Positions 8,365 to 51,080 are shown, counted from the first letter of the stretch. The stretch is DNA of 64,000 nucleotides from Aquificaceae bacterium (GCA_037925075.1 JAXSNR010000001.1:128001-192000); one strand, 5' to 3'. A program made the numbers and translations. The notes: generated by a model not told the origin, from the sequence alone.

Positions 8365-8393
8365 TATAGCACCTCCTTAAGGATTTTGTTATA

Positions 8394-8427
8394 AGTTTAC
8401 AGGTCAATTGTTAAGATTTCGTTAAGA
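8394..8427 (-). promoter_or_regulatory. Putative Pho box plus -10 element of pstSCAB
   Basis: Minus strand TCTTAAC-GAAA-TCTTAAC (8427-8410), 10-nt spacer AATTGACCTG, then TAAACT; same geometry at four other promoters. Confidence 0.8.
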
Positions 8428-14547: not shown

Positions 14548-14581
14548 GCTTAATCAAATCTTAACAATTCACCTATACAAT
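14548..14581 (+). promoter_or_regulatory. Putative Pho box plus -10 element of the P1B-ATPase operon
   Basis: GCTTAAT-CAAA-TCTTAAC (14548-14565), 10-nt spacer AATTCACCTA, TACAAT (14576-14581); spacer matches the pstS spacer at 8 of 10 positions. Confidence 0.7.
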
Positions 14582-14590
14582 TCATAAGGG

Positions 14591-14965
14591 ATGATAGAGC
14601 ATGTGTCCTTAAGAAAAGGTGAGGCAAGGCTCTACTTTTCAAGCATTGCGGAAAAGGAGTTTTTTCTTCATGGTATGAAAGGGATGGAGGGGGTTGTGGG
14701 GGTGGAACACAAGGAGAACATAAGAACAGTCCTTGTAAGGTTTAGGGAGGGAAGCTTTGCTCACTACCTTATTGAAAACTTAAAGGCTAAGAGGGAAAGT
14801 CAGAAGCTGGAGAAGGAGGACTTACACTTCTACCTTCAGCCTTTTCTCAAACATCCGGCGGTTAAGTTGGGCTTTAGTATGGCTCTCCTTGGGTGGAATG
14901 TGGGGCTTATATCCTTTGCAATTTGCAGTATGTTTCTTATGCCATATTTAAAGAACAAACTTTAG
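14591..14965 (+). CDS. HMA-like domain plus C-terminal membrane segment protein (FezC-like)
   Basis: N-terminal ferredoxin-like pattern (GEARLYF..EGVVGVEH..RTVLVRF) and C-terminal TM with GWNVG (GxxxG). Confidence 0.5.
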   Translation: MIEHVSLRKGEARLYFSSIAEKEFFLHGMKGMEGVVGVEHKENIRTVLVRFREGSFAHYLIENLKAKRESQKLEKEDLHFYLQPFLKHPAVKLGFSMALLGWNVGLISFAICSMFLMPYLKNKL

Positions 14966-14975
14966 GAGGTAAGGT

Positions 14976-15290
14976 ATGCTTAACATCAGCGTTCCCAGTA
15001 CAATAGGTGGATGTTTGTCCACCAATATGCTTTTGTATGGCTTTGGTGCCTTTGCAGGGTTTGTGGTGCTTAGCAGGCTTATGAGGGATGCAAGGCCCCT
15101 TCTTGTTTCTGCTACAAAGGAGGTAATTGCCTTTCAGCAGTGGCTTGCGGGAAACCTTGAAGAAGGTAAGGAGTTCTGGGAGGATGTGGTCTCTGAAGCC
15201 AAGCACCAATACAGGCTTGAGGTGGAAAAGAAGTTGGATATCCTACAAAAACAGCAAGAAATCCTACAGAAAATAAAAGAAAGACTTTGA
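14976..15290 (+). CDS. DUF5132/DUF1490-like small membrane protein (FezA-like)
   Basis: Gly-rich TM (YGFGAFAG), then RPLLVSATKE...EFWEDVVSEAK amphipathic helix typical of P1B-ATPase-associated proteins. Confidence 0.6.
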   Translation: MLNISVPSTIGGCLSTNMLLYGFGAFAGFVVLSRLMRDARPLLVSATKEVIAFQQWLAGNLEEGKEFWEDVVSEAKHQYRLEVEKKLDILQKQQEILQKIKERL

Positions 15291-15301
15291 GGAGGTAAAA
15301 G

Positions 15302-15505
15302 ATGAGCAACATAACTTCTTTTTTAGGAAAGGCTCTTTGCTCTGGACCCTTTAGCTTTGCCCTTGGCTTTGGCCTTGGAATGGTTGCCTTTTACATGCTC
15401 GACAGAGTCAAAGAAAAAAGAAGGCTCGAAGAAACCCAGAAGGAAATAGAAGCCCTGGTCAAAGCCCTTGAGCTAAAGCTCCAGCAGGAGAGCAAGACAG
15501 AATGA
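15302..15505 (+). CDS. Small GxxxG membrane protein with coiled-coil tail
   Basis: FALGFGLGMVAF TM, charged C-terminal helix; GAGGAGG SD. Confidence 0.6.
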   Translation: MSNITSFLGKALCSGPFSFALGFGLGMVAFYMLDRVKEKRRLEETQKEIEALVKALELKLQQESKTE

Positions 15506-17586
15506 CCTACAAGGTGGAAAAACTCTTCCCCGGAAGGCTAAGGCTTGTCTCTTACCTTTTCCAGCATCTACACCATCCCGATGAAACCTTAAAGTCCTAC
15601 TTTTCAAGGTTTGGAGGTGTAAGAAGAATAAGCTACTCAAAGGCTTCCGGAAGGCTCACCCTTGAATACGACCCAAAGAGCTTTGACCTTATAGAATTTC
15701 TCAACCACCTTGAAAGCATACCAAGGGATGTTTTCCTTGAAGACCTATCAAGGGAAAAACCAGCCACAAAAAGGGAAGAAGGTAAGGCCTCTCGTTGGCT
15801 TATGCTTAGCACCCTTGGCTTCCTGCCATACATAATGAGAAGCACCCTATCCACGCCTTTCCTTGCGGGGATAACATTGCTTCTTGCCAAGCCCATATTT
15901 GACAAGGCTCTCAGTTCTATTGGAAGGAAAAAACTTGACGTTCATTTTCTTGACTCATCAGCCATAGTTCTGGCAAGCCTTACGGGAAACCCACTATCCG
16001 CACACACTATGGTCTTCCTGCTTGCCCTTGGTGATTATCTTTCAGAGAGGGTTGAAAGGAAAGCCTACGAGAAGATAGAAAAGCTTTTCTCTTACAAAGA
16101 GGACACCGCATGGCTACTTGTTGGCAACGGTCAGGCGGTAAAGGTAAAAGCCATAGACCTAAAAAGGGGTGACCTGATAGCGGTCTATGCGGGAGAGAAG
16201 ATACCGGCGGACGGCTTGGTAGAAGAGGGAGACGCCCTTGTAAATCAAGCATCTTTGACTGGAGAGTCAAACCCTGTTCACAAAAAGGTGGGTGATAAGG
16301 TCTTTGCGGGTACCTTTGTGGAGGATGGAAAGCTTTATGTGAAGGTGGAAGAAGTGGGCGAAGAAACGGTGGTTGCAAAGATAGCAAAAATTGTGGAAGA
16401 GAGTATAAAGGAGCCCATAAGCGTGCAGAAGATGGCAGAAGAAAACGCCAACAGGCTTGTAATGCCCACCATCAACCTTGGCTTGATATCTTATCTACTT
16501 AGCAATCAGGTAAGCAGGCTCACCTCCACCCTTATCATAGACTACCATACGGGAATTCACCTTACAACGCCTCTGACGGTGCTCTCCAGTGTGGCACAGG
16601 CTTCTACCTACGGCATACTCATAAAAAGCGGTGGAAAGCTGGAGGCTCTTTCAAGAGTTGATACCTTTGTAATGGACAAGACGGGCACTTTGACTTTGGG
16701 GTATCCTGCGGTTGAAGATGTAGTAGGTCTGGAAGTGCCAGACGAAGAAGCCCTTTTATACGCCGCTTCCCTTGAGCAAAGAATAACCCATCCCGTAGCA
16801 AGGGCAATAGTAAAGATGGCAGAGGATAAAGATATAGAGCTTTTGCCAAGAGAGAACTCCCAGTATCATATAGGGCTTGGTATAGAAGGGGAGTTAAGCG
16901 GTACAAAATTCATGCTTGGAAGCACTCGCTTTATGCAAAAAAAGAGGATAAGGATAAGTCAAGAGGTAAGAGACCTTGTGGAGAAGTTCCATTCGGAAGC
17001 AAAATCTGTCCTTTACCTTGTTAGAGAAAAGAGAATAGTGGGGCTTCTTACCTTTAGAGACCCACTGAGGCAAGAGGCAAAGGATGTGGTAGCAGAGCTA
17101 AAAAGGAGAGGAAAAAAGGTAGTGCTTTGCACAGGCGACAACGAAGGCGTAGCCAAGTACATGGCAAAGGAGTTGGGCATAGAAGAGTTTTACGCAAGGG
17201 TTTTCCCTGAGGAAAAGGCAAAGGTGATAGAAAATCTTAAAAGGCAGGGTAGGGTGGTTGCCTTTGTGGGGGATGGTGTAAACGATTCACCAGCTCTCTC
17301 TCGTGCGGATGTGGGCATATCTCTAAGAAGTGGAACAGACATAGCCATAGAGGTGGCGGATGTGGTCATAGGAGATAGCCTTTGGCATCTTATCGATGTG
17401 GTAGATATAGCAGAGCATACTATAAAAAGGCTAAGAAGCATATACAGGCTTAATGCTTTAGCCAACACGGTGGGGCTTGTGGGCTCCGCATTGGGTCTTT
17501 TTGGACCCTCTGTATCAACCTTGATAAACAACGGCACCACAGTGCTTTTGGGTTTATATTCAATAAAAAAAACAAAAAGGAGGTGA
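15502..17586 (+). CDS. Heavy-metal-translocating P1B-type ATPase, P1B-6/FezB-like
   Basis: TGES, DKTGT, HP, GDGVND core motifs; N-terminal PGRLRL; DYHTG replaces CPC in TM4; NNGTT in the last TM. Confidence 0.85.
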   Translation: MTYKVEKLFPGRLRLVSYLFQHLHHPDETLKSYFSRFGGVRRISYSKASGRLTLEYDPKSFDLIEFLNHLESIPRDVFLEDLSREKPATKREEGKASRWLMLSTLGFLPYIMRSTLSTPFLAGITLLLAKPIFDKALSSIGRKKLDVHFLDSSAIVLASLTGNPLSAHTMVFLLALGDYLSERVERKAYEKIEKLFSYKEDTAWLLVGNGQAVKVKAIDLKRGDLIAVYAGEKIPADGLVEEGDALVNQASLTGESNPVHKKVGDKVFAGTFVEDGKLYVKVEEVGEETVVAKIAKIVEESIKEPISVQKMAEENANRLVMPTINLGLISYLLSNQVSRLTSTLIIDYHTGIHLTTPLTVLSSVAQASTYGILIKSGGKLEALSRVDTFVMDKTGTLTLGYPAVEDVVGLEVPDEEALLYAASLEQRITHPVARAIVKMAEDKDIELLPRENSQYHIGLGIEGELSGTKFMLGSTRFMQKKRIRISQEVRDLVEKFHSEAKSVLYLVREKRIVGLLTFRDPLRQEAKDVVAELKRRGKKVVLCTGDNEGVAKYMAKELGIEEFYARVFPEEKAKVIENLKRQGRVVAFVGDGVNDSPALSRADVGISLRSGTDIAIEVADVVIGDSLWHLIDVVDIAEHTIKRLRSIYRLNALANTVGLVGSALGLFGPSVSTLINNGTTVLLGLYSIKKTKRR

Positions 17587-17592
17587 AAAGCA

Positions 17593-17862
17593 ATGGAAGA
17601 AAAAAAGGACCTTGCTCAGGAGCTTGAAAAAATCAAGGCGGAGCTTGAGGAGCTTAAGAAAAAGATGGGAGTAGCGGAAGAGGAAAAGAGTCTAAAGGAC
17701 CTTCCTACGGAAGCCCTCTCAAAGGTTATGGAGCTCAGTAAAGAAATAGTAAAGACCACCGCGGAGATAGGCGAGAAGGCTCTAAGGGTTGTAAGGTATT
17801 CCGTTGAGGGTGCGGTAGAAGGCGCAAAGAAGGCACTAAAAGAAGAGGAGAAGAAAGAGTAA
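17593..17862 (+). CDS. Coiled-coil hypothetical protein
   Basis: Strong SD; highly charged helical 89-aa ORF in the same operon. Confidence 0.7.
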   Translation: MEEKKDLAQELEKIKAELEELKKKMGVAEEEKSLKDLPTEALSKVMELSKEIVKTTAEIGEKALRVVRYSVEGAVEGAKKALKEEEKKE

Positions 17863-17864
17863 GG

Positions 17865-18122
17865 ATGAACTTCATAAGGACAAGAAGCGGAAGGTATCTT
17901 AATACTCTCCATATTATATCCCTTTCGGTGGAGGAAGCTAAGATAGAGATAGAGGGGAAAAAGAGGCTGGTTTATAAGGTGGTCGCCTACATGAGCCAGC
18001 CTCTTCTTCCTGCGGTTTTGGGTATTTACTCCACAGAAGAAAGAGCCTTTGAAGTTTTGGAAGATATTATACAAAGGCTTTCAAGGGACGAAAGGGTCAT
18101 ACATGTTGAAAGCGAGTACTGA
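17865..18122 (+). CDS. Hypothetical protein
   Basis: 85-aa ORF tightly packed after the previous gene. Confidence 0.6.
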   Translation: MNFIRTRSGRYLNTLHIISLSVEEAKIEIEGKKRLVYKVVAYMSQPLLPAVLGIYSTEERAFEVLEDIIQRLSRDERVIHVESEY

Positions 18123-18441
18123 AGACTACGAAAGAGAACTAAAGCTACTTGCCCATCATATACAGGAAGCACATAAGGAGCTTTTTAAAAGCATACAAGA
18201 GAACATTCTTCTTGAGGTAGAGCTTCCCGAGGGAGGGGGAGTTAATTTCCTAATAAGCTCCAGTGGCATAAATCTCACCTCCGATGTATCACAAGCCAAA
18301 CACGTGGTAAATGTAAGCTACAGAGATTTAATGAGGCTTGTGGAAAATCCCTCAAAGATAGTTTCTTATGTATTAAAGGGTAGGGTCAGAATAAGGGGAG
18401 ATTACAAAACCATACTCTCCACGCTTCAGAAACTCCTCTAA
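18103..18441 (+). CDS. SCP2 sterol/lipid-binding domain protein
   Basis: VNVSYRDLMRLV..P....VLKGRVRIRGD pattern of the SCP2 fold; ATG at 18103 inferred. Confidence 0.7.
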   Translation: MLKASTEDYERELKLLAHHIQEAHKELFKSIQENILLEVELPEGGGVNFLISSSGINLTSDVSQAKHVVNVSYRDLMRLVENPSKIVSYVLKGRVRIRGDYKTILSTLQKLL

Positions 18442-18644
18442 AAGAGCCTGTTTAGAGCTTTTGTTATAAGGTTTTCCAACAAACCACCCACTACGAAGGA
18501 TTCTATAAGTATAGTCCTGTCCTTTTCGGTGAGAAAAGTGTCCCTTTCGCGTTTTCTGAACTTTTCACCCTTTTTAAGAAGTCTTCTATAACAGTCCTTC
18601 TCCCTCTCTATCTCCTGAATTAGAAGCTCTATCCTTTCCTTCAT
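18438..18644 (-). CDS. 68-aa hypothetical protein
   Basis: ORF directly downstream of its own Pho-box-like promoter. Confidence 0.6.
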   Translation of the reverse strand: MKERIELLIQEIEREKDCYRRLLKKGEKFRKRERDTFLTEKDRTILIESFVVGGLLENLITKALNRLF

Positions 18645-18652
18645 GCTTGGGT

Positions 18653-18686
18653 AGTTTAACTGAAAACTGTTAAGATTTCGTTAAGG
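18653..18686 (-). promoter_or_regulatory. Putative Pho box plus -10 element
   Basis: Minus strand CCTTAAC-GAAA-TCTTAAC (18686-18669), 10-nt spacer AGTTTTCAGT, TAAACT (18658-18653), 8 nt to ATG. Confidence 0.75.
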
Positions 18687-18723: not shown

Positions 18724-19833
18724 CTATACCTTAGCAAGGAAGCCACGATAGACCTCAAAGAGCCTGTCAAAGGTGGATTCCCAAGAAAACCTGTTGCGTA
18801 TAAAGGAGCTGACTGTTTCCCTGTATGATAAGCTTACCGCATTGCATGCATGGACTATGGCATCGTAGAAGACTTCCAGCGTGGGCTCTTTAACCAAAAA
18901 CTCCTTGAAGGGTTGTGTTTCAAGCTCCATATCAAAGGCAACCAGTAGACAACCGCACGCTTGAGCCTCAAGAAAGGCAAGTCCGTAGGTTTCGTAAAGG
19001 GAAGTGCTAACAAAGACATCACAACTCGCGTATATTTTTGCAAGGTCTTCTTTCTTAGCAATGTATCCAAGGTATGTAAGATTTGGAAGTTTTTGAGAGA
19101 GCCTTTCTACCTTTTTTCTGGCTGGACCATCGCCCACCACGACAAGATGAAATAATGTGGGGTCAAGATGTTGGAAAACTTCAAAGAGAAGGTCCACATT
19201 CTTATCGGGGGAAAGCCTACCCGCATAGAGGAGCTTAAATCTTCCCTCTTTTACTCCTATTATTTTATTGAAGTATGGGTCTCTCATAGAGGGGTTAAAA
19301 ACGTTTGTATCAACCCCTAAGTTTACAGTAAGCACATTTTCTATTCCAGACCTTTTTAGAAAGTCTTCCTGCGTCTTGGAGGGTGTTATTATGAGGTCCG
19401 CCTGGGATAGCTTTTTTCCTATGGTGTAGTCAATTAGAGCCTTCTTTAGTCTCTCTGGAGCAGGTATAAGTGAAAGGTCCGCCCTTATGTCGGAATGATA
19501 AAAAACGCTTAACATATACCTATCTGACTTGAGATGGTTTATGGGTTGGTATGTGCCACCTAGTTCTACCACATCTGGGTCTTCTACTTTCAGTATTTCC
19601 TTTATTTCCGAAAAGGAGGAAAAGAACCTGTAGCCACCGGTAAGGGGCAAGGGAAAAGAGGGAAGCTCATAAACCTTTGTGGAGTTTATGTAGTAGGTCC
19701 TCCTTTTTCTGCCCGGCACTATAAGAACATGCTCTATACCTCTCTGTTGCACATACTTGGTCTTTTCCAGTAAATACCTTCTTATGCCACCGCTTTTGCT
19801 ATGAAAGTAAGGGGTTATATCAGCTAACTTCAT
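18724..19833 (-). CDS. GT4-family glycosyltransferase
   Basis: MKLADITPYFHSKSGGIRRY, YAGRLSPDKN, GDGP, ETYGLAFLEAQACG; ATG at 19833 preferred. Confidence 0.9.
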   Translation of the reverse strand: MKLADITPYFHSKSGGIRRYLLEKTKYVQQRGIEHVLIVPGRKRRTYYINSTKVYELPSFPLPLTGGYRFFSSFSEIKEILKVEDPDVVELGGTYQPINHLKSDRYMLSVFYHSDIRADLSLIPAPERLKKALIDYTIGKKLSQADLIITPSKTQEDFLKRSGIENVLTVNLGVDTNVFNPSMRDPYFNKIIGVKEGRFKLLYAGRLSPDKNVDLLFEVFQHLDPTLFHLVVVGDGPARKKVERLSQKLPNLTYLGYIAKKEDLAKIYASCDVFVSTSLYETYGLAFLEAQACGCLLVAFDMELETQPFKEFLVKEPTLEVFYDAIVHACNAVSLSYRETVSSFIRNRFSWESTFDRLFEVYRGFLAKV

Positions 19834-22066
19834 GGACAAGCCTTCCAAGACCAGCTATGGCTAACATGTAGTCCATGTATGTTTTTCTCATATCAAGGCT
19901 TTTGGCGTAATACAGTGCTTCCTGAGACATGCTCCTTCTGAGGCTTTCATTGGAAAGAAGAAGGGACAACCTTTCTACAAAGTCTTCTTGTCTTGTGGCT
20001 ATAAAGCCATTAACACCCTCCTTTAAATGCTCATGGGAGGCACCCTTTGAACTTACCACCACAGGAAGACCGCATGCCATAGCCTCCAAAACCACCTGCC
20101 CATAGGTTTCAGTCTCTGAGGGGAAGAGAAACACATCTGAGCTTGCGTAGGCAGTAGCCAAATATTCTCCCACCATATATCCCACAAAATGCACATTTTT
20201 TGGTTTTTTAACTTCAAGCTCTCTTCTGTATGGTCCGTCTCCCACCACCACAAAAACATCCTCCGGAAAACACCTTGCGGTATAAAGGAAGGTATCCAAA
20301 CCCTTTTCCTTAGATACCCTGCCAACGTAGAGGATCACTCTTTGATGTCTTCTTATACCAAGCTTTTCAGTCCATAAATCTTCGCGTCTTTTTTGCGGTG
20401 AAAAGAGTTCCGTATCAACACCACGCTTGAAGGTGCTTACCTTGCCATACTCAAGCCCATTACTTATAAAAAGCTTTCTGTAATGTTCTGATGGGACAAA
20501 AAGCCTATCGGAGAGATTGCCCAGAAGGACAAAGGCTTTCCAAAGTAGTTCTTCCATCTGCGAGTCTCCCGTGTAGGTTCTTGCGTAGGCTGGTATGTCC
20601 GTATGAAAGGCAAAGGTGATCCTAAGATTTAGAACTTTGCCCGCTAAAAATCCCATAAGTCCAAGGGGTCCGGGTGTGGCTATATGAACTTGGGTAAAAC
20701 CCTCCTTTTCAATAAGGTCCAACAGCTCCAAAAAGTTAGGAACTCCCATCCTTAACTCTTCATAAAAGGGCGTGGCCAATTCAAAAAGAGGTTCTAAGTT
20801 TATAAGGTTTTCCTCTTCCTTTAACTGTGAGCTTGCAACAATCACTGTAAAGGGTAGGTCTTCCTCAAGGGCTATCTGTCTTATGAGCTTAGCACTTCTT
20901 GCAACTCCGTTTATGTGGTGGTAGGTATCCGTAAGGTAGGCAACCTTTGGAGGCTTTCCGTTGCTTATACCAAACTCCTTTCCAAGGACCCTTATCTTCT
21001 GCTCTTCTCTTTTCTGGGCGTACTTTAAAAAGGCGGGGAAGCCATGAGCCACGAGGGACAGGCACAGCTCCCCAATGGTCTGCGGTGAGGGGCTTTTCAA
21101 AAGCCTTCCTATGGCAAAGGAAGGCAGTTTTTTTGCTATTTCCCTCAAAAGGTCTGACCTTTCCGCTTTTATACCAAGAAGATTTCTCAAAAGCATACCC
21201 ACCAAAGGGTTGTCCGATTGCATGAAAATATAATCAGTTATCGGTCTTACCTCAGAAGGTATCAGGTTTTTGCTTTTTAGAAAGTCATAGCCCACTCTGC
21301 AAACCATATTGAGAAGCCTTTTATCTCCAAGGTCTTCTGTTCCCAAATGCGTTCTGCCTTCCCAAAGCCCTCGCAAAAACTCCTCTTTGCTAAGGGCCCC
21401 CTCAACTCCTGTCCAAGTCCTCCCCACATCCATGCCCCCGTGGTCATCAGAGCCTGCGGTAAAGGTGATCCTCTCCCTTATCCTCTGGGGTTCCATCTTG
21501 TGCCTTTCCGCAAGGGCGTTTATTCTGTCCCACCCATCGTAATGGCGGGCTATGGTCTCTTCTATGTATCTAACACCATCCCCCCTTGTGCCGTTTATCA
21601 CCTCCCAGTTGTCAAAGAGAAGCGCCAGTTTTTCCACGAGATTCCTGTCTATATTTGTCCCCTGCACCGAATAAAGAGGGTGTGCAAGGGAATGGGCTAT
21701 CCTGTGGGACTTTAGATATCTCACAAAATCGTATAAATTTTCCCTGAGCTTGAGAAGGTCCTGATGTTGGGCTTCTGTGATGCCATAGACCAACACATGC
21801 ACCTTAGCCTTTTCCTCTGGGAATTCCACCGTGTATTCACAGCTGATAAAGACCTCCGGCAGGTGTGCTATCTCAAGAACACCGCTTATAGTGTTGTGGT
21901 CTGTTATGGTAATATAGCTCATCCCTCTTTCTTTGAGCCTTATGTATATCTCCATGGGCTCTGTAAAGCTCTCTGGGCATCCTACTAACTTGCTAAACCA
22001 ACCCCCCGGCAGGTTGGAAGCCTTTGAATGAAGGTGTAGGTCCGCCTTTGCAAAAAAGTTCCCCAT
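19820..22066 (-). CDS. PHP phosphoesterase domain / GT4 glycosyltransferase fusion
   Basis: N-terminal DLHLHS, ITDHN, AHP, GSDDH (PHP); C-terminal TDTY..INGVA, HIATPGPLG, RGVD, YVGRVSKEK, ETYGQVVLEAMACG (GT4). Confidence 0.88.
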   Translation of the reverse strand: MGNFFAKADLHLHSKASNLPGGWFSKLVGCPESFTEPMEIYIRLKERGMSYITITDHNTISGVLEIAHLPEVFISCEYTVEFPEEKAKVHVLVYGITEAQHQDLLKLRENLYDFVRYLKSHRIAHSLAHPLYSVQGTNIDRNLVEKLALLFDNWEVINGTRGDGVRYIEETIARHYDGWDRINALAERHKMEPQRIRERITFTAGSDDHGGMDVGRTWTGVEGALSKEEFLRGLWEGRTHLGTEDLGDKRLLNMVCRVGYDFLKSKNLIPSEVRPITDYIFMQSDNPLVGMLLRNLLGIKAERSDLLREIAKKLPSFAIGRLLKSPSPQTIGELCLSLVAHGFPAFLKYAQKREEQKIRVLGKEFGISNGKPPKVAYLTDTYHHINGVARSAKLIRQIALEEDLPFTVIVASSQLKEEENLINLEPLFELATPFYEELRMGVPNFLELLDLIEKEGFTQVHIATPGPLGLMGFLAGKVLNLRITFAFHTDIPAYARTYTGDSQMEELLWKAFVLLGNLSDRLFVPSEHYRKLFISNGLEYGKVSTFKRGVDTELFSPQKRREDLWTEKLGIRRHQRVILYVGRVSKEKGLDTFLYTARCFPEDVFVVVGDGPYRRELEVKKPKNVHFVGYMVGEYLATAYASSDVFLFPSETETYGQVVLEAMACGLPVVVSSKGASHEHLKEGVNGFIATRQEDFVERLSLLLSNESLRRSMSQEALYYAKSLDMRKTYMDYMLAIAGLGRLVHEVS

Positions 22067-22739
22067 AGCTGGCTAACCTCCTTTCCTTTTTTATCTTGCC
22101 AAGTATTTCTTTCCAAAGCTCTATCTTTCTTTCGTCTCTAAAGTCCGCCATATGAAGGGCAAGTCTGAGGACCTGATGACCTTTGTAGAGTTTTTCCATG
22201 TTGGGAACCACCATAAGGCTTAGCCAAGATAGCAGATTCCTGTTGCTGAAGGTAAGCGTGGGAGAGTCTATGACCCTGTTGTGGTGTAGGTCCTTTATGT
22301 GCCACCTGTAAGCTACAGCCCTAAAACCAAAGGAGTAAAGCACATCCTCAAGGTAAGGATTCCCTATCCATGCGGGTGGCACAAAAAACTCTGTATTTAG
22401 ACCAAAATATTCCATAAGCTCCAAGCCAGATTGAACCCTTTTATAGGTCTCCGTAAGGTCAAGCCCCCCAAACTCACCCTCCCCATCTGTCCAAAGCAAG
22501 TCCTGAAGCCTCTTCTTACCCTTATGGGTGTACCCATGAAGCACCAGCTCCACCTTGAGGCTTTTTAGAAGGTTCAAAAAGCTCAGGTCCCCTCCAAGTG
22601 GTGCGTACTCCCAAAAGTAGGGCACTACAAGAAGGGAAAATCTATCCAATCCCACCTCCTCCAAGAGCTCAAGGGCTTTATAAAACTCAACCCTGTAATA
22701 AGGGCTCACATCGTGAAGTTCCACTATGGCAAGCTTCAT
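21993..22739 (-). CDS. DUF2334 / polysaccharide deacetylase-family protein
   Basis: ELHDVSP, LHGYTH, EGEF, FVPPAW, RLALH motifs. Confidence 0.85.
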   Translation of the reverse strand: MKLAIVELHDVSPYYRVEFYKALELLEEVGLDRFSLLVVPYFWEYAPLGGDLSFLNLLKSLKVELVLHGYTHKGKKRLQDLLWTDGEGEFGGLDLTETYKRVQSGLELMEYFGLNTEFFVPPAWIGNPYLEDVLYSFGFRAVAYRWHIKDLHHNRVIDSPTLTFSNRNLLSWLSLMVVPNMEKLYKGHQVLRLALHMADFRDERKIELWKEILGKIKKERRLASYGELFCKGGPTPSFKGFQPAGGLV

Positions 22740-22746
22740 AGAAAAA

Positions 22747-22802
22747 AGAGTAGTATGGGAAAGTTAAGATTTCTTTAAGGTTTGGTTAAGATTTGGTTAA
22801 GA
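22747..22802 (-). promoter_or_regulatory. Four tandem Pho-box-like half-sites plus -10 element
   Basis: Minus strand TCTTAAC-CAAA-TCTTAAC-CAAA-CCTTAAA-GAAA-TCTTAAC (22802-22763), 10-nt spacer, TACTCT (22752-22747), 7 nt to ATG. Confidence 0.8.
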
Positions 22803-50016: not shown

Positions 50017-51063
50017 ATGAGAAAAATCATTGTTGTGGGTAGTGGAGTTATAGGTTTGAGCTGTGCCCTTTTTCTTGCGTCCAATGGTTATAGGGTTCAG
50101 GTTATAACCAGAAACCCAGAAGAAGCCACCTCATGGACCGCTGGGGGAATGCTGGCACCCTTCTCCGAAGGCTTGGAAGGAGAGCTTTTTGACTTTTCTT
50201 ACCAAAGCCTCAAGGCTTATCCAGATTTTATAGAACACTTAAGGGATGTTTCTAAGCAAGAGATAGACTTTTGGCAGGAGGGCATCTACAGGGTGGTGCT
50301 AAAAGGTGAAGAGGAACTCTTAAATATAGCAAACAGATACAAAAGCAAAGGCTATGGCGTTGAGTTTGTTGAAAAACCAGATAAGGGGCTCTCATCGGAG
50401 GTTATATCTCTCATACATTACACAGAAGAGGCTTGGGTGGATGCGGAGATGCTCATGGATGCCCTGCTTTTTGCTATGAAAAGGCTCAGTGTGGATTTGG
50501 TGGTAGATGAGATTTGTAAAGTTATAAAGGATAATGAAGAAATAAGAGGGGTTAAGGGTCTTAAATCCGAATACAGGGGGGATTTTTACCTTTTTGCCAC
50601 TGGTGCATGGACAAGGGAGCTTTTTGACCTTCCTGTATATCCTATAAAGGGTCAGGGGCTTAAGCTCAAAGGTGAGAGCCTACCAAGGGTTCATTACTCT
50701 TCTGTTTCTTACCTTATACCGAGAAAAAGGTACATCTATGTGGGTGCCACTTCCGAAGAGGTGGGCTTTGTGAGTGGAAACACCCTTGAGGGCATAAAAA
50801 TGCTCTCCGAAGGTGCCTTGCGTGTGGCTCCCGTGCTTTCAGAAGCCCGCATTCTGAGCATGCTATACGGCTACAGACCAGCCACACCTGACGAAAACCC
50901 CATTTTTCAGGTGGGAGACAACTACATGGTGGCGACAGGACACTATAGAAACGGCATTCTACACGCTCCCATAACCGCAAAAATTCTATTGGATTATCTC
51001 AAAGGACAAAAGTCAGCCTATATTGACCTTTTTTCATCAAGCAGGTTCTTAACCAAATCTTAA
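50017..51063 (+). CDS. thiO: Glycine oxidase
   Basis: VVGSGVIGLS, AGGMLAP, PIKGQ, YLIPR, RPATPD, GHYRNGIL. Confidence 0.9.
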   Translation: MRKIIVVGSGVIGLSCALFLASNGYRVQVITRNPEEATSWTAGGMLAPFSEGLEGELFDFSYQSLKAYPDFIEHLRDVSKQEIDFWQEGIYRVVLKGEEELLNIANRYKSKGYGVEFVEKPDKGLSSEVISLIHYTEEAWVDAEMLMDALLFAMKRLSVDLVVDEICKVIKDNEEIRGVKGLKSEYRGDFYLFATGAWTRELFDLPVYPIKGQGLKLKGESLPRVHYSSVSYLIPRKRYIYVGATSEEVGFVSGNTLEGIKMLSEGALRVAPVLSEARILSMLYGYRPATPDENPIFQVGDNYMVATGHYRNGILHAPITAKILLDYLKGQKSAYIDLFSSSRFLTKS

Positions 51064-51080
51064 CAGACTCTCTCTAATCT
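51047..51080 (+). promoter_or_regulatory. Putative Pho box plus -10 element of phoX
   Basis: TCTTAAC-CAAA-TCTTAAC (51047-51064), 10-nt spacer AGACTCTCTC, TAATCT (51075-51080). Confidence 0.8.

Follow-up and report, generated by a model that had tools for sequence, protein, structure and literature searches.

We analysed a window of 64,000 nucleotides (nt) from an Aquificaceae bacterium (GCA_037925075.1 JAXSNR010000001.1:128001-192000), in which an initial annotation had described a ferrosome (fez)-like operon of seven genes with a phosphate-responsive promoter. Seven open reading frames (ORFs), here called A to G, lie on the plus strand at 14591-18441 and are tightly coupled, with intergenic gaps of -20 to +11 nt; they encode proteins of 124, 104, 67, 694, 89, 85 and 112 amino acids (aa), respectively. 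All seven stand where that annotation had placed them, but a convergent eighth gene, H (18438..18644, minus strand), which encodes a basic helical protein of 68 aa and has its own Pho-type box, had been overlooked. H co-occurs with the operon, and the conserved module consists of the seven coupled genes together with H. An Atlas search with H gave no usable match.

Protein A (14591..14965, +) combines an HMA_2/CoBaHMA-like N-terminal domain with a C-terminal hydrophobic segment containing GxxxG, a FezC-like layout. Protein B (14976..15290, +) has a hydrophobic GxxxG segment and an acidic helix, and is DUF5132/DUF6110-like, of the FezA/PacL scaffold type. A Pfam scan of the window proteins matched neither A nor B to the HMA or DUF5132 families and did not find DUF1490 (the PacL family). 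The HMA-like and DUF5132-like designations given earlier nevertheless hold by profile-profile comparison, in which A aligned with HMA_2 proteins at 84% probability (E 8e-6, over 53 columns) and B with cyanobacterial DUF5132 proteins at 93% probability (E 3e-7). An orthologue of A matches PF19991 with a score below the cut-off. Look-alikes of B in the Atlas, taken as leads only, are DUF5132/DUF6110 proteins at 0.87-0.89 (DUF6110 0.88). B holds one His and one Cys and has no His/Cys-rich metal-binding tail. Protein C (15302..15505, +) contains GxxxG and a charged C-terminal helix; a hydropathy scan called no transmembrane helix in C, but the same scan also missed most helices of the P1B-type ATPase encoded by D (15502..17586, +). 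Protein E (17593..17862, +) is helical with an amphipathic stretch and shows a phasin-like hint only (E 0.024). Protein F (17865..18122, +) is conserved and beta-rich with a C-terminal helix; a PDB sequence search returned no match, and a fold search only weak to middling PH/PTB-like matches (Z up to 6.2, not decisive). Protein G (18103..18441, +) has the SCP2 lipid-carrier fold, as initially annotated, with a match above the Pfam cut-off; PF02036 was matched by 9 of 11 orthologues. G probably starts at ATG 18103, as in the orthologues, the longest ORF opening at TTG 18049.

The operon is preceded by a Pho-box-type direct repeat, CTTAAT-N5-CTTAAC, with an 11-bp period (14549-14565), followed by a 10-nt spacer and the -10 element TACAAT (14576-14581). 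The complete element (14549..14581, +) has no consensus -35, and sigma-70 promoter prediction called no promoter at this position. The same architecture is present at the reference promoters of pstS (8393..8426, -) and phoX (51048..51080, +), and a second Pho-type box with a 10-nt spacer and a -10 element stands in front of H (18653..18685, -). A box matrix was trained on four sites (pstS, phoX and two before a DUF2334 gene), the operon site being left out of training. Among 62 matches above 12 bits in the 1.6-Mb genome, the operon site ranked 7th (22.3 bits), far above chance, which confirms the common architecture with pstS and phoX that had been claimed for this promoter. The top ten sites precede phoX, pstS, DUF2334 (three overlapping sites), H, DUF302, the operon, an LMWPc gene and glycogen synthase, with phoU 11th; the first three ranks are training sites. 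The operon thus has the Pho-regulon layout common to pstS, phoX and phoU, an 11-bp-period direct repeat 10 nt before the -10 element. The repeat core agrees with the consensus CTTAACCT for SphR, the cyanobacterial PhoB, as given in the accessible part of PMC1906773. The genome encodes PhoB-, PhoR- and PhoU-like genes and three other OmpR-family regulators. No Fur-like site was recognised by consensus at the window promoter, where the best fit has 9 mismatches to the Fur consensus. Assignment of the box to the divergent thrB was rejected, because the box follows the operon although the upstream gene changes among genomes.

Protein B was matched in 50 of 178 genomes of the phylum Aquificota, strongly in 47, and upstream regions were taken from 42 of those 47. 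A lenient repeat pattern occurs upstream of the operon in 39 of the 42 (2.1 expected from shuffles; 1/42 downstream controls), and the repeat followed by 10 nt and TAnnnT in 31 (0.03 expected; 0/42 controls). The three loci without the box are L022, where the site is degenerate, G164 and G044. The loci differ in their flanking DNA and in the genes upstream; since the 42 genomes are kin, conservation of the box represents a footprint, not 42 independent tests. The identity of the spacer to that of pstS, reported initially as 8/10, is real, but it reaches 8/10 in this genome alone and 2-7/10 in the other 30 genomes with this architecture. As the identity varies while the 10-nt spacing is kept, spacer length alone matters, and the match is incidental as a signal. 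The 42 upstream regions likewise hold no Fur-like site by this consensus, the best fits having 5-8 mismatches. The operon stands immediately behind pstSCAB-phoU-phoR in G131 and lies facing TonB genes and phoD in G139, and in genus g5 it comes after a phosphoesterase gene and continues into a CDF gene and an olsB-like gene. Judged by its promoter, the operon is very probably under Pho control; the preference of the initial annotation for a Pho box over a Fur box is backed by this conservation and by the known SphR box in cyanobacteria (see below).

Of 118 genomes with at least 90% completeness, 36 carry the operon. H is present in 29 of these carriers, the seven without it being six genus-g5 genomes and the decayed G034; four genomes have H but no B match. 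In G034, a complete genome, the module has decayed (L038 4641-7536): the pump gene is split into four pieces by frame breaks, F and H are shortened, and G was not found; both boxes are still present. In G049 the B match is weak and contains stops. In family f2 (L033 5718-6251, L036, L043, L049), the operon begins with an additional gene of 160-190 aa that belongs to no known family. At L043 92-5629 and L031 1432-5687, phoD or a phosphoesterase gene forms a group with TonB/ExbBD genes under the same boxes, which suggests TonB-driven uptake for phosphate scavenging.

PPK1 was found in 1 of 99 scored Aquificales genomes (a set made up of G000 and families f1, 0/57, f2, 1/35, and f3, 0/6), and no PPK2 scored above the cut-off in this set. 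Cells of the Aquificales therefore appear to do without the usual polyphosphate store. G164, the sole carrier with both polyphosphate kinases, has no box before the operon (n=1). In family f5 of the phylum survey, PPK1 is common (14/18 genomes).

The motifs attributed earlier to the pump were all found in the sequence of D: PGRLRL, DYHTG 45 residues before DKTGT, and NNGTT, without CPC. The protein has P-type Pfam domains and passes TIGR01525; its N-domain is R-rich, M4 contains D347-Y-H-T-G, M5 contains N651 and N655, and M6 contains N676-N677-x-x-T680. An AlphaFold model (pLDDT 91) has P1B structures as its best structural matches, and PDB searches returned only Cu/Zn/Cd P1B and other P-type structures, none from its clade. 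The nearest named relatives are Aquificaceae proteins. P1B-6 pumps (FezB) are defined by D[Y/F]SCA and HNxxT, according to the accessible part of 10.1101/2020.01.10.902569. Three motif types occur among 269 homologues, DxSCA/HN, D[YF]xTG/NN and CPC. The DxxTG pumps, including that of the window, form one clade, with a support of 0.997 in FastTree (174 length-filtered rows, 18 of them picked from the Aquificota clade) and an SH-aLRT of 99 in IQ-TREE (a quick tree of 49 rows from random subsets). This clade is sister to the DxSCA clade (SH-aLRT 99), whose rows, in trees and alignments alike, are FezB by motif and include no experimentally studied FezB. The CPC pumps fall outside. Phylogeny thus places the ATPase next to FezB and not with the Cu/Zn/Co CPC pumps, as the initial annotation had anticipated.

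FezB and DxxTG pumps have in common the M4 Asp, M5 N655 and M6 N677, but in DxxTG pumps Cys is replaced by Thr and His by Asn. At the M4 Cys column, 100% of 44 FezB-motif rows have C and 97% of 39 Aquificota-clade rows have T. The Aquificota branch adds H349, H353 and N651, and its R-rich N-terminal motif is degenerate in many orthologues (R56%/K43% at two positions). Pump D lacks D[Y/F]SCA in M4, HNxxT in M6 and a position inside the FezB clade. It therefore belongs to a sister clade, so that of the ferrosome-like assignment the kinship of the pump and the DUF5132-, GxxxG- and HMA_2-type partners stand, whereas the operon is not a fez operon. A check for FezH-type pairing with fezB found a DxSCA pump in the fetched flanks of 0 of 184 DxxTG loci, many of them short. 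Given the loss of soft ligands, a harder divalent cation is the likely substrate. We infer a cation that prefers oxygen ligands, with Fe2+ or Mn2+ reasonable candidates at somewhat under even odds, Ca2+ or Mg2+ only slightly less likely, and Zn or Co unlikely.

The module is not restricted to thermophilic Aquificae: orthologous operons occur in cyanobacteria, an extension that is new in this analysis. We took the best 80 of 572 confirmed DxxTG stretches in GTDB genomes, nearly all cyanobacteria, and in these the pump genes sit with HMA_2 genes (74 loci) and DUF5132 genes (72 loci). A two-repeat SphR-consensus site with at most one mismatch precedes the first gene in 48 of 73 loci, compared to 5 of 190 controls taken upstream of other conserved genes at the same loci (seven loci were omitted, being too short or without a module ORF). 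Within 200 nt, such a site was found for 48/75 first genes and 0/291 later genes. The sites occur mostly in the HMA-first, largely Nostocales arrangement (46/61); DUF5132-first loci have a site in 2/11, and three more with two mismatches. At L137, a 30-nt site is identical to the SphR sites predicted before all2006 of PCC 7120 (rank 18) and Ava_5066-5065 (rank 12), genes given as hypothetical proteins, with no link to a pump operon, in the accessible part of PMC1906773. Because of this identity, we infer that all2006 heads the operon in PCC 7120.

In 11 Nostoc-type loci (L090, L108, L109, L114, L117, L118, L119, L120, L126, L129 and L130), a Fur-like site with 2-5 mismatches lies ~80 nt further upstream than the Pho box, some 134-150 nt ahead of the first HMA_2 gene. 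At several of them the divergent gene encodes an iron-uptake porin, which the site may serve. Joint control by iron and phosphate is possible at these loci. A gene for a CoBaHMA-PAP2 phosphatase fusion lies a few kb downstream of the module at L123 (14593-15648) and 20 other cyanobacterial loci (21/80); a Pho box precedes it in 0 of the 21.

The DUF5132-HMA_2-pump trio recurs in a third set of 80 metagenome loci. Here, the strict E. coli consensus for Pho boxes, with as many as 3 mismatches allowed, gave a weak result (7/44 vs 8/195), and the cyanobacterial-type box was absent at up to 2 mismatches. A relaxed TGTHAY repeat of period 11 occurs in 12 of 40 usable promoters, compared to 3 of 181 controls and 0-2/40 at other periods, but this pattern was picked after the strict-consensus output and 6/40 are on the opposite strand. 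The signal is suggestive only, and most of these operons have no box. A scan for the Pho pattern found no box in front of the plasmid operons L051-L055. One of these, L053 (1527-15728) on a Nostoc plasmid, combines a DxxTG pump and a P2-type pump with cax Ca/H exchanger genes and with another pump whose M4 is unusual (DFSHS), a grouping that is a pointer to calcium. L055 (5286-9049), a Vibrio operon of the DYSCA (FezB) type, has a Fur-like site at 5 mismatches, and the Pho pattern is absent, the expected direction for what is a single control.

Beside the module, a DUF2334 deacetylase-like gene and two GT4 glycosyltransferase genes of lipid-remodelling type (18724..22802, -) form an operon (18724-22739) of the same regulon with tandem boxes upstream, comprising four tandem repeats. 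The nearest NCBIfam models are N-acetylglucosaminyl-phosphatidylglycerol synthase and deacetylase, both below the cut-off, and the long glycosyltransferase beside the module carries a PHP-like N-terminal domain. Further Pho-type boxes of the genome (G000:C1:394352-, 582798+, 442308- and 687380-) precede the DUF302 gene, the LMWPc (ArsC-like) gene, glycogen synthase and phoU and sketch the outline of an Aquificaceae Pho regulon.

We propose, with a probability of roughly 40%, that the PhoB-activated module builds a ferrosome-type, lipid-bounded metal-phosphate compartment, the mirror image of the ferrosome. Upon phosphate shortage, PhoB would bind the repeat in place of a -35 element and switch on the operon and H together with pstSCAB, phoX, phoU and the lipid-remodelling genes, a step in which we have high confidence. 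By kinship with fez proteins, the GxxxG/DUF5132 and CoBaHMA membrane proteins would then hold the pump in clusters and form a small membrane body, to which SCP2 and the amphipathic protein E may supply lipid or a coat. The pump would load the lumen with such an oxygen-preferring divalent cation. Once phosphate is available again, overshooting uptake by the derepressed Pst system would cause metal phosphate to precipitate inside, as reserve and buffer. Induction in famine fits a store, because iron limitation raises the expression of ferrosome genes, the organelle itself forms once iron is supplied again (bioRxiv 10.1101/2020.01.10.902569, accessible part), and what it stores is ferrous phosphate, Fur being the regulator in C. 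difficile (10.64898/2026.06.16.732667, accessible part). A sister system under Pho control would by symmetry fill when phosphate returns, which is the key argument for this model. It is supported by the sister position to FezB, by partner genes of the same kinds as in fez clusters, by the conservation of the box before the operon in Aquificota and its presence at the first gene only in cyanobacteria, by the near-absence from Aquificales of polyphosphate kinases, the usual alternative, and by the DUF5132 and CoBaHMA genes beside ccyA. Calcium as the metal is supported by the occurrence of DUF5132 and CoBaHMA genes beside ccyA and cax and by the joining of a DxxTG pump with cax at L053; iron is supported by the FezB kinship and by the Fur-like site of the Nostoc-type loci, possibly owned by the divergent porin.

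Several points weigh against such a compartment. Withdrawing phosphate from use during famine seems paradoxical unless the compartment fills only after resupply, and the module encodes no phosphate transporter. Cyanobacteria, the control group of the kinase survey, normally have polyphosphate kinase yet keep the module, which is therefore not simply a substitute for polyphosphate. Iron transport cannot be assumed, because the pump has other residues in place of the Cys and His characteristic of FezB. In 7 of 20 long Aquificota loci, a CDF exporter gene is situated inside the operon or shortly behind it. Finally, the scaffold-pump pair PacL-CtpC forms a plasma-membrane efflux platform, not an organelle (10.1101/2021.10.01.462712, accessible part).

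The last two points lead to the main rival, a Pho-induced effluxosome in the plasma membrane, in which a DUF5132/GxxxG scaffold holds the pump, sometimes with a CDF protein, and exports a divalent metal that becomes toxic when phosphate, nucleotide and phospholipid ligands drop. We regard this as possible but on balance unlikely. PacL (DUF1490) scaffolds CtpC in plasma-membrane microdomains of Mycobacterium, and DUF6110 proteins, which are among the look-alikes of B (a lead), are linked with P1B-6 pumps (10.1101/2021.10.01.462712, accessible part). A ZitB-like CDF gene lies inside the operon at L043, a CDF gene directly after the pump at L031, L032, L047, L048 and L050, and a DmeF-like CDF gene two genes on at L044. 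MamB/MamM families, however, are among the weak matches of the CDF genes. CDF proteins also load magnetosome vesicles. Moreover, the pump is nearer FezB than the CtpC-type CPC/HN pumps in the tree, B has no metal-binding tail of the PacL kind, and efflux does not need SCP2 or amphipathic proteins. The SCP2 gene would be at home in membrane-lipid remodelling, by which phosphorus is recovered from phospholipids and phosphorus-free lipids are put in, the pump tuning membrane-bound cations or a lipid-linked substrate. The GT4/DUF2334 operon adjoins the module in the window and at L037, L040, L041, L043 and L045; an olsB-like ornithine-lipid gene is downstream at L031, L032, L047, L048 and L050; CoBaHMA-PAP2 phosphatase genes are nearby in cyanobacteria; and CoBaHMA domains are hypothesised to bind anionic lipids (as cited in the accessible part of 10.64898/2025.12.07.689555). 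Pho-regulon genes may, however, simply tend to cluster, which would account for the adjacency; the PAP2 unit of cyanobacteria lacks a box, and no SCP2-type cluster is among the frequent neighbours outside Aquificota. The pump, furthermore, retains a polar intramembrane site like other P1B pumps. We consider remodelling improbable as the main function.

Delivery of Fe or Ca to the exported phosphatases PhoX or PhoD, of which iron supply to PhoX had been suggested initially, is slightly more improbable still. The box is common to phoX, 21 of 36 carriers have a PhoX-family match, and phoD, a phosphoesterase gene or phoX lies near the operon at L043, L031/L032/L050, L035 and L137. But 15 of 36 carriers have no PhoX match (some of them may have PhoD), so that supply to PhoX is not the general purpose, and in 10 genomes that have PhoX a strong B match is lacking. 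A very unlikely alternative is that a different OmpR-family regulator, such as one that senses metal, binds the repeat and that the operon is free of phosphate control. The genome (G000) has four Trans_reg_C proteins, its PhoB candidate (G000:C2:654700-655371) falls short of the NCBIfam cut-off (234 vs 296), a few genes with a box (DUF302, the LMWPc protein, glycogen synthase) play no evident part in phosphorus metabolism, and the 11 Nostoc-type loci have the Fur-like site ~134 nt before the operon. Yet the top sites precede phoX, pstS, the glycosyltransferase operon and phoU, the repeat core matches the SphR consensus, the operon of G131 stands behind the phosphate genes, and the Nostoc site may serve the porin.

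In conclusion, the module is real, conserved and very probably phosphate-regulated, and may serve phosphate storage or metal handling. To our knowledge, every ferrosome described so far stores iron and is regulated by iron. If the proposed compartment exists, a Pho-controlled sister clade in at least two phyla would mean that the same organelle kit has been turned to another nutrient; luxury phosphate uptake by cells that have no polyphosphate kinase could then be explained, and some of the Ca/Fe-phosphate inclusions of cyanobacteria may be of this origin. Doubtful, though worth stating, is the wider reading that DxxTG pumps mark a phosphate-storage organelle that is widespread and as yet undescribed, made under Pho control in famine, filled with Ca-, Mg- or Fe-phosphate on resupply, ranging from Aquificota to bloom- and soil-forming cyanobacteria and replacing polyphosphate granules in Aquificales. 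The pumps would represent an unclassified P1B subtype with an all-oxygen-type site, and efflux, too, would newly link phosphate starvation with metal homeostasis. The module is directly testable, as genetically tractable Nostoc appears to carry it and public RNA-seq data for phosphate starvation and refeeding exist for Nostoc PCC 7118 (PRJNA626624, named in PMC7564538). We found no literature that links the pump clade or DUF5132 operons to the Pho regulon, in a search that left subscription journals mostly uncovered; the supplements of the ferrosome preprint may list the clade. The operon is not mentioned in PMC7564538 (text and supplement), PMC5193443, PMC3720943 or PMC11672702, as far as their accessible parts go.

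Compared to fez clusters, the pump shares the R-rich N-domain, the Asp-aromatic start of M4, the M5 Asn, the M6 N-x-x-T and a sister position in the tree; small GxxxG proteins and an HMA-like membrane protein are likewise common to both, a likeness of kind that involves no direct comparison with named Fez proteins. In contrast, the module has DYHTG instead of D[Y/F]SCA in M4 and NN instead of HN in M6, a Pho box instead of Fur/iron control, phosphate and lipid genes instead of feo/fur as neighbours, and additional SCP2, E, F and H genes. Many of its carriers are, we presume, oxygenic or microaerobic. Like PacL-CtpC, it encodes an R-rich P1B pump together with a small helical scaffold protein anchored in the membrane, and the two systems have the DUF6110 link in common. 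CtpC, however, has CPC and HN, PacL1 has a His-rich metal-binding tail, and the pair answers metal excess. In Microcystis, DUF5132 and CoBaHMA genes flank cax and the calcium-carbonate granule marker ccyA (10.1101/2024.07.07.602159; PMC8890360; accessible parts). This calcyanin (ccyA) neighbourhood resembles the module in its CoBaHMA/HMA_2 and DUF5132 genes, ccyA itself being tied to a mineral inclusion, but the module has neither a glycine-zipper calcyanin nor cax, and its centre is a P1B pump. The cyanobacterial SphR regulon, described in accessible passages of PMC1906773 that cover cyanobacteria and not Aquificota, has the same CTTAAC-type direct repeats with an 11-bp period. Judged from these features, the module is a system that works like the scaffold-pump pairs of fez and PacL, with a pump that is not a member of the FezB family.

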